A DNA stretch of 12,621 nt, from IMG/VR virus record IMGVR_UViG_2872180393_000003, positions 1 through 12,621 of that record. One strand, given 5' to 3'. This DNA is from a virus (Duplodnaviria > Heunggongvirae > Uroviricota > Caudoviricetes). Below are positions 723 through 1,916 of this stretch, in pieces. A model generated the notes under the pieces. It saw only the letters and a program-made list of their open reading frames with translations, did not search any database and was not told where the DNA came from. Each line of letters starts with the position of its first letter. Within the stretch, counting starts at the first letter, position 1. The translations under genes and the position numbers were made by a program.

Positions 723-1750
723 TTACCCCGCTTTCTTATGGGGCATGCATGGGACACTTTCAGATAGTCTTCTGTTAAGAAGTTCTATCTGTTCGTGATT
801 GTTGTCTTTCATCCATGCTCCGTAAACATTGAATACCATTTGTGCGTTTGTGTGGCCCATCTGGCTTGCGATAAAACTAGGATTAGCTCCTGCGGCAAGT
901 GACCAGCATGCATAGGTATGCCTGGATTGATACGATTTTCTGTGTCTCAGACCTGCGCGTTTTAAGATACTTGTCCATGACTCCCTGATGGAGTCAACCT
1001 TATAGTGCGGTCCGGAAAACTGCCGCTGTTTTATTACCTGAGGACTAAAAACAAAAGTGCATTTATGCACAGTACTTCTCCCATATTCCCTCTGCTATTA
1101 CCTCTACAGAATGCTGTTTTCCAAGCATGGTCATTTCCGCTTGGCTTTTAAGAGCATCAATAGCTGGTTGAACTAGATGAATCGTTCTTCCGGTACCAGC
1201 ATCAGTTTTTGGTGGAGTGAATTCGCCTAGTTTTGTATAATTCCGGCGGATGGTTATAGTCCTCGCTTTAAGGTCTATATCTTCCCAGGCCAGTGATACC
1301 AGCTCCCCGTGACGAATACCCGAGTATACAGCGATAATCCACAGGTTTTTTGTTTGTTGATGACGGCAAGCCTCAATAAAACGAATAAATTCGTCACGGG
1401 TGAGGGGATCTGGTTCTATCTTGGACTTTTTTAATGGTGTCAGACCGTTAAATGGATTTCCTGATGTATAACCATTATCTGTTGCAAATTGAAACATTCC
1501 AGCTATGGTTGTCATATAGTAGTTTACTGTGACCACTGAGCGTCCTTTTATGGAAGAAATTTTTCCGTTAGAAAGCTTTTGATAACCGGTCAACAGATCT
1601 CTCCTTACGAAAAGCAAATCCTCTTTTGTTACAGATGAAACCAGTCTTTTTTCACCTAACATTGGCAACATATTTTTAATTACTGACTGGTAACGGTTAA
1701 GTGCATTTGCACAAATCTCTATTTTCTTCAGTTCAAGCCATCTTTCCGAA
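723..1750 (-). pseudogene. int: phage tyrosine recombinase (integrase), frameshifted and N-terminally truncated
   Basis: Two consecutive minus-strand ORFs (1063-1671 and 723-1070) in different frames carry tyrosine-recombinase motifs (YSGIRHGEL; RHTYACWSL; QMGHTNAQMVFNVYGAWM). The frame change lies between about 1063 and 1095. The N-terminal frame stays open upstream of the annotated ATG (1671) to position 1782, running into the IS66-type terminal repeat at 1751, so the native N-terminus is missing. Confidence 0.75.
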
Positions 1751-1916
1751 GTAAGCGCCCCGAGAAGTACGTAGCGTAAGGATTATTTTACAGACGAGAA
1801 GTTCCAGGGCAGCAGTTCATGCACTTGGTTCGACGGCCAGTCATTGAGCTTCTCGATCACTTCGCGCAACCAGTCCTCCGGCTCCACTTCGTTCTGTTTG
1901 CAGGTGACCAGCAGGG
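1751..1916 (-). mobile_element. IS66-family element remnant (right end only: terminal repeat plus transposase C-terminus)
   Basis: Plus strand at 1751 begins GTAAGCGCCCCGAGAAG, the GTAAGCG start typical of IS66-family terminal repeats. The minus-strand frame 1783-1916 encodes ...TCKQNEVEPEDWLREVIEKLNDWPSNQVHELLPWNF, resembling the conserved C-terminus of IS66-family TnpC (ELLPWNW motif). It is cut at 1916/1917 by IS600. Confidence 0.55.

Follow-up and report, generated by a model that had tools for sequence, protein, structure and literature searches.

The DNA analysed here, a stretch of 12,621 nucleotides (IMG/VR record IMGVR_UViG_2872180393_000003; hereafter the window), is very probably the left end of a lambdoid prophage in an advanced state of decay; this prophage carries an integrase gene of the VT1-Sakai/BP-4795 type and resides in the mlrA (yehV) gene of Shigella boydii. 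According to this reading the integrase has been destroyed twice, by a base inserted at position 1097 and by the IS66-family element ISSfl3, with IS600 and a loss of DNA to its right as further marks of decay. MlrA is an activator of curli synthesis. The window starts on the stop codon side of its interrupted gene, which lies on the minus strand at positions 1-702 (mlrA'; identical sister loci and lysogens have it annotated as mlrA, 233 aa). From ...PVTLRAWQRRYGLLKP onward its translation agrees with MlrA, and the native 5' end of the gene (where the HTH begins) is swapped for phage-derived codons. The attL core, a 20-bp attachment site at 665-684, exactly matches the site annotated in phage VT1-Sakai (AP000400.1).

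The sequence anatomy, the identities of the elements and the breakpoints are read directly from the DNA, and so is their occurrence in several assemblies. Positions 1-11965 are 100% identical to CP026846.1, and CP119446.1 and LPTQ01000091.1 share both the junctions and the extra A and deviate by no more than two to three substitutions. Thus, the layout of integrase gene, ISSfl3 and IS600, including the extra A and a GG dinucleotide next to IS600, is common to at least three S. boydii assemblies, which makes a sequencing artefact very unlikely. The arrangement occurs in none of the 5426 complete E. coli genomes in RefSeq; matches there that cover 86% of positions 600-3400 turned out to be separate integrase and IS600 pieces joined together. 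A search for the exact pattern of the integrase/ISSfl3 junction gave no match in the GTDB species-representative genomes, a one-per-species set that likely contains none of this S. boydii lineage. No exact-protein record was found for the 202-aa integrase fragment or for the OrfB variant of a second IS600 copy (IS600-2), and literature searches returned nothing on the IMG/VR record accession and nothing on ISSfl3 together with IS600.

Nested insertion sequences at the truncated end of the integrase gene

The upstream part of the integrase pseudogene occupies positions 1098-1750 (minus strand). It comprises codons 88-304 plus one nucleotide of codon 87 and encodes the core-binding region followed by the catalytic domain's first half, in which the box I Arg lies, as judged from alignment, Pfam and motif positions. 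For every integrase homologue listed, 1050 nt align to 1051 nt of the window, and the alignment ends at position 1750. Hence, the first 260 nt of the gene are absent, including the start codon and the arm-type DNA-binding domain (Arm-DNA-bind_2, aa 7-70 of the intact protein), and the region is replaced by ISSfl3. The integrase frame is open upstream of the ATG at 1671 and continues across the junction (...K*SLRYVLLGALT/SERWLELKK..., with the slash at the junction), just as the preliminary description had it, which followed this frame past the ATG into a GTAAGCG-type terminal repeat at 1751. Indeed, positions 1751-1761 read GTAAGCGCCCC, the 11-bp terminal inverted repeat present at both ends of full ISSfl3 copies, which measure 2734 bp. 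The integrase gene was therefore cut by a true transposon terminus.

The sequence next to this junction is the right end of ISSfl3, 166 of 2734 bp (1751-1916, minus strand). Positions 1751-1914 are identical to the ISSfl3 end of pCP301 and of other ISSfl3 copies at 164 of 164 nt (E = 1e-79), which substantiates the proposed IS66 similarity of this segment. The TnpC stop codon and the last ~43 codons are located at 1783-1916 (…EDWLREVIEKLNDWPSNQVHELLPWNFSSVK), and the peptide ELLPWNF, thought earlier to be an IS66 TnpC-like C-terminus, is the C-terminus of TnpC (Pfam DDE_Tnp_IS66_C, PF13817; E = 3e-14). The element is termed 'IS66-like element ISSfl3 family transposase' in RefSeq and 'ISSfl4 ORF3' in the pCP301 record, and it is frequent on Shigella invasion plasmids. 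Its terminal inverted repeat starts with GTAAGCG, as in the IS66 family. Full copies elsewhere carry tnpA, tnpB and tnpC in this organisation, whereas the window has lost tnpA, tnpB and over 90% of tnpC and thus holds a remnant and not an element. At codon 87 of the integrase gene the ISSfl3 target is TTTCCGAA. As to the 8-bp duplication of the IS66 family, the other ISSfl3 end is deleted from the window; a copy in S. flexneri shows GAATTAAC.

The remnant is followed by a complete IS600 of 1264 bp (1917-3180, plus strand), which is 99.5-99.8% identical to annotated copies and retains both inverted repeats. Its length of ~1.26 kb, the imperfect inverted repeats beginning TGAGGT and the presence of orfA (1981-2283, 100 aa) and orfB (2319-3137, 272 aa) with HTH and rve (DDE) domains are those of the IS3 family; HTH_Tnp_1, rve and other Pfam domains were found on the sister-locus genes. 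It differs from the annotated copies by the missing 3-bp target duplication, which has no bearing on family membership: the flanks read GGG on the left and GAT on the right, indicating that, once IS600 had inserted, one of its flanks was exchanged or deleted. Other IS600 copies examined are bordered by the duplications GAC, CAG, GTT and GGT.

The left flank has a further peculiarity. Positions 1915-1916 read GG where ISSfl3 and two other ISSfl3::IS600 junctions read AC, so that two of the three bases of the expected GAC duplication beside IRL are altered; at its remaining 164 nt the remnant equals pCP301. With this mismatch to ISSfl3 the junction is not a textbook insertion flank. Since the GG is present in all three S. 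boydii assemblies, it is not an assembly error. Despite the GG, the boundary at 1916/1917, where the preliminary description had placed the end of the remnant and the start of IS600, is right, because the end of IS600 falls on the same ISSfl3 nucleotide in two further loci (L016 and L017). In S. flexneri (UGYQ01000001.1), IS600 is a simple insertion at this tnpC nucleotide, flanked by the GAC duplication (…CAGCAGAC/IS600/GACTGTAG…). In S. dysenteriae ATCC 12039, the plasmid shares this left junction, within an ISSfl3 copy that is uninterrupted in pCP301. In intact copies, the ISSfl3 sequence beyond the IS600 site continues on the GACTGTAG.../GACTGTAGATG... side. Thus, IS600 occupies a genuine ISSfl3 insertion site 166 bp inside the element, at the 3' end of tnpC.

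Two side observations concern this site. IS600 is found at the same ISSfl3 tnpC nucleotide in three Shigella species and replicons (window 1900-1916; L016 5001-5171; L017), and the breakpoint in the replication gene on the other side of IS600, GTGACAGCAGCT/GAT (L018 2488-2503), resembles the ISSfl3 target GTGACCAGCA/GAC; a target preference or hot spot of IS600 is conceivable. A more elaborate version, which we regard as speculative and rather doubtful, is that the 3' end of ISSfl3 tnpC (GTGACCAGCA/GAC/TGTAG) is an IS600 hot spot struck independently in the S. boydii chromosome, a pINV-like plasmid of S. dysenteriae and the S. flexneri chromosome, and that the change of AC to GG is either a donor-flank footprint of IS3-family copy-out transposition, arising by resynthesis from the nicked flank, or the result of gene conversion between IS600 copies. 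A simple inversion between the two IS600 copies of the window was also considered as the source of the odd flanks and rejected: it predicts CCC to the left of IS600-2, and the sequence is CAC.

A 60-aa chimeric ORF spans the ISSfl3/IS600 junction. It is located at 1783-1965 on the minus strand, starts inside the IRL of IS600 and reads into the TnpC C-terminus. The product is known as S. boydii protein WP_134795662.1, present on four contigs and labelled 'transposase domain-containing protein' in the database, and provides a handy exact-match marker of the junction; the species name used here was taken from such protein records.

The nesting shows that ISSfl3 entered the integrase gene and that IS600 lies in ISSfl3, without fixing whether IS600 entered before or after ISSfl3 reached the integrase gene. 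Insertion of ISSfl3 at codon 87 would have cut the gene off from its promoter, start codon and arm-binding domain, and IS600 would have come to occupy the site 166 bp within ISSfl3. The preliminary description derived an order from the nesting, namely an IS66-family element into the integrase gene and then either IS600 into that element or a later IS600-mediated deletion. Both a genuine IS600 site and a rightward deletion are indeed found; however, the order is not uniquely implied, since an ISSfl3::IS600 composite with its own 8-bp duplication exists elsewhere. It is quite possible, if on balance improbable, that such a pre-formed composite, mobilised in trans by other ISSfl3 copies, entered the integrase gene in one step and that only the rightward deletion came later, in which case the nesting would not record two successive hits at this locus. 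The composite of S. flexneri UGYQ01000001.1 is bracketed by a perfect duplication of GAATTAAC, which transposition of the composite, or of ISSfl3 at an earlier stage, would be expected to leave, and its IS600 differs from that of the window at only 4 of 1264 nt. However, the interrupted ISSfl3 of the S. dysenteriae plasmid sits exactly where the copy of pCP301 is uninterrupted, which argues that IS600 can enter a resident ISSfl3 and that the site may be a hot spot. The window itself speaks for neither course.

DNA missing to the right of IS600

Immediately to the right of IS600 lies a lambdoid, O-like replication gene (3181-3816, plus strand) that is truncated at its 5' end and starts from codon 64 of a 295-aa protein. 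From position 3181 on, it shows 100% identity to the replication gene of E. coli ZH063 (L018 2501 onward; gene 2312-3199), and its C-terminal part is 98.9% identical to gene 43 of Sf6 and to O of HK106. Genes for a DnaB-like helicase, ninB, dam and ninE follow. Neither the window nor the 20-kb sister loci contain the remaining 2568 bp of ISSfl3, the 5' end of the integrase gene, xis or the early genes of the STEC308 type.

As the replication gene has the normal prophage orientation relative to the integrase gene, the simplest history is a deletion between IS600 and the replication gene. All that lay to the right of IS600 would thereby have disappeared: 2568 bp from ISSfl3, the 260 nt at the 5' end of the integrase gene, xis, and also the early region through codon 63 of the replication gene. 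Most likely, it occurred by homologous recombination between IS600 and a second, directly oriented copy in the replication gene; an adjacent deletion mediated by IS600 itself is the alternative. The implied copy in the replication gene would have had a GAT duplication (...CAGCAGCTGAT/IS600/GATTTAGG), and the lack of a target duplication at the IS600 of the window is expected after recombination or deletion. No intermediates, such as a full ISSfl3 in the integrase gene or an IS600 in the replication gene, were found; we therefore infer the deletion mechanism and the order of events from the present anatomy.

It is unlikely that the missing segment was moved by an inversion between IS600 copies rather than deleted, in which case an IS600 junction far away would still carry the 5' end of the integrase gene together with xis and the remainder of ISSfl3. 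Other IS600-associated rearrangements are present at the locus, the late genes stand inverted with respect to the replication genes, DNA of the pflB region adjoins the second IS600 in the sister S. boydii genome CP049278.1, and the sister genomes were examined over ~20 kb around the locus, all of which leaves some room for this explanation. However, the normal orientation of the replication gene fits a deletion between direct repeats and not an inversion, and nothing of the missing segment is present within 20 kb. Deletion thus remains the preferred explanation.

The far end of the window is formed by IS600-2 (11423-12621, minus strand), which is inverted, runs off the window end and truncates the gene of the Q antiterminator. 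The genes rep, dnaB, ninB, dam and ninE (3181-6456) are on the plus strand, and the late genes terL', terS, KilA-N, Rz, lysozyme, holin and Q' are all on the minus strand (7248-11438); hence, the late region is inverted, with the inverted IS600-2 as its boundary at Q'. The distance from Q' to the holin gene is only 455 bp, and an stx operon is therefore absent. A Gp49/HigB-like and HTH_3/HigA-like gene pair (6498-7206, minus strand), a putative toxin-antitoxin module, separates ninE from the terL fragment. The DnaB-like helicase gene has a 36-bp length difference at 4863-4906 between CP026846.1, which equals the window, and CP119446.1/CP049278.1 (products of 478 and 490 aa). The OrfB of IS600-2 (11465-12283, minus strand) carries the exchanges W14R and A183V relative to the first copy; at the DNA level, one indel and about 5 nt distinguish the copies. 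CP049278.1 (L010 8754-12279) carries one more IS600, located between the holin gene and Q' and flanked by the duplication CAG. Beyond IS600-2 in this genome, pflA/pflB/focA/ycaO DNA is found and not the other half of mlrA, which points to a large IS600-bounded rearrangement at the right edge of the prophage.

A frameshift in the catalytic domain

The integrase gene carries a second lesion, which is located in the part of the gene that ISSfl3 has left behind. Two minus-strand ORFs, 723-1070 and 1063-1671, lie in different frames, as had been claimed in the preliminary description, and the cause is one inserted base, an A on the plus strand (coding T) at position 1097 that changes GTA AAG into GTA ATA G. 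This base is the sole indel relative to intact integrases. The split had first been placed near 1063-1095; the causal base is 2 nt beyond this range, and the segment 1063-1070 is a mere overlap of the two ORFs. The insertion throws codon 305 out of frame (a +1 frameshift), and translation meets a premature TAA 11 codons further on, at 1063-1065. DNA alignment to the intact relatives thus located both the frameshift and the missing N-terminus and yielded no single frame of full length.

The nearest intact integrase is that of E. coli STEC308 (428 aa; L003 3024-4310), whose gene is followed by xis and is 99.6% identical at the nucleotide level. It belongs to a prophage at the same mlrA site. A base-by-base comparison within the gene revealed substitutions at 789, 1323 and 1672 and the inserted A at 1097, in addition to the 5' truncation. 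The extra A is missing from all E. coli and phage homologues listed.

The part of the pseudogene 3' of the frameshift (723-1096, minus strand) comprises codons 305-428 and the stop codon, with the box II Arg, the His and the Tyr nucleophile. Pfam Phage_integrase (PF00589) is recognised on both fragments, with 33.3 and 30.3 bits as compared to a gathering score of 27.1, and the matches cover profile positions 3-90 and 103-165, i.e. one catalytic domain cut in two. The motifs GIRHGEL (box I, codon 231) and PKTDAG (267) precede the shift; SRHTYA (362), MGHTN (384) and the tyrosine motif NVYGAW (394) follow it. Their catalytic roles are those that we presume from general knowledge of tyrosine recombinases. 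Thus, the Phage_integrase catalytic domain is present, but the residues R...K...HxxR...H...Y are no longer on one polypeptide. The insertion at 1097 would separate the box I Arg and the Lys from the box II Arg, the His and the Tyr nucleophile. Taken together, the integrase is dead for two independent reasons, the frameshift at codon 305 and the cut by ISSfl3 at codon 87. The frameshift may have preceded or followed the IS events. A programmed or otherwise functional frameshift was rejected, as the N-terminal domain and the start codon are gone and the close intact relatives are all without the extra base. A mistake in sequencing or assembly as the source of the frameshift, which would leave IS truncation as the only damage to the gene, is highly improbable: single-base indels are the commonest assembly error, but the inserted base is outside any homopolymer run (CTGCT[A]TTACC) and recurs in three separate assemblies, of which two are complete chromosomes and one is a draft.

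With no intact integrase, no arm-binding domain, no xis and no early region, and with DNA other than mlrA beyond IS600-2 in a sister genome, it is well supported that the prophage remnant would be unable to excise, which we infer from gene content. The outcome would be a remnant fixed in place and an mlrA gene that is permanently disrupted.

Prophage decay at mlrA in Shigella

Integrases of this type are encoded by 457 of the 5426 complete E. coli genomes, beside mlrA in the records listed, and by 127 phage records, as determined by DNA searches. Among them are the Stx phages integrated at yehV/mlrA, i.e. VT1-Sakai/Sp15, BP-4795, YYZ-2008 and JLK-2012, whose integrase genes share 93.5-94.7% nucleotide identity with the window over the 1050 retained nt; the mlrA location and the 20-bp att core are shared as well, and non-Stx relatives exist in E. 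coli. As compared to the Stx-phage integrases, the window lacks codons 1-87, has the +1 frameshift at 305 and has lost xis, and it contains no stx between Q and the holin gene.

FDAARGOS_943, a strain deposited as 'E. coli' that carries a pINV-like plasmid (NZ_CP065615.1; L001 4124-5409), has a related integrase gene (95.1% nucleotide identity) at the same site, which is likewise annotated as frameshifted. In this case, the frameshift is a 1-nt deletion equivalent to window position 1646, and the 5' end of the integrase gene as well as xis are kept. As the frameshift is a different one, FDAARGOS_943 shows independent decay of the same gene. In this strain, IS600 is located right after xis without a target duplication, and nested ISSfl3/IS600 copies are found inside the prophage, ~9 kb further in.

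The elements involved, namely a VT1-Sakai-type integrase, ISSfl3 and IS600, as well as IS-mediated prophage decay were already known, and the sequence is in GenBank; the locus is thus an ordinary example. What is mildly new is limited to the repeated use of one ISSfl3 tnpC site by IS600 and to the 2-nt change in its flank. Beyond annotation the importance is little. For annotation, the locus is useful as a lineage marker for this S. boydii clade, and it holds a warning for prophage predictors, as an integrase-like ORF beside attL does not imply an excisable element. For Shigella, expansion of IS600 and IS-bounded deletions and rearrangements that inactivate genes have been described, and loss of the curli pathway is a convergent trait (Hawkey et al. 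2020, PMC7373316). That study does not describe this particular locus and makes no mention of prophage; the process of IS-driven decay is the same. The window adds a base-resolved case of prophage fixation in Shigella, in which a point indel in the integrase gene and nested insertion sequences are joined by loss of xis and permanent disruption of mlrA. Since mlrA stays disrupted, the locus fits the IS-driven genome reduction and the convergent loss of curli in Shigella (PMC7373316).
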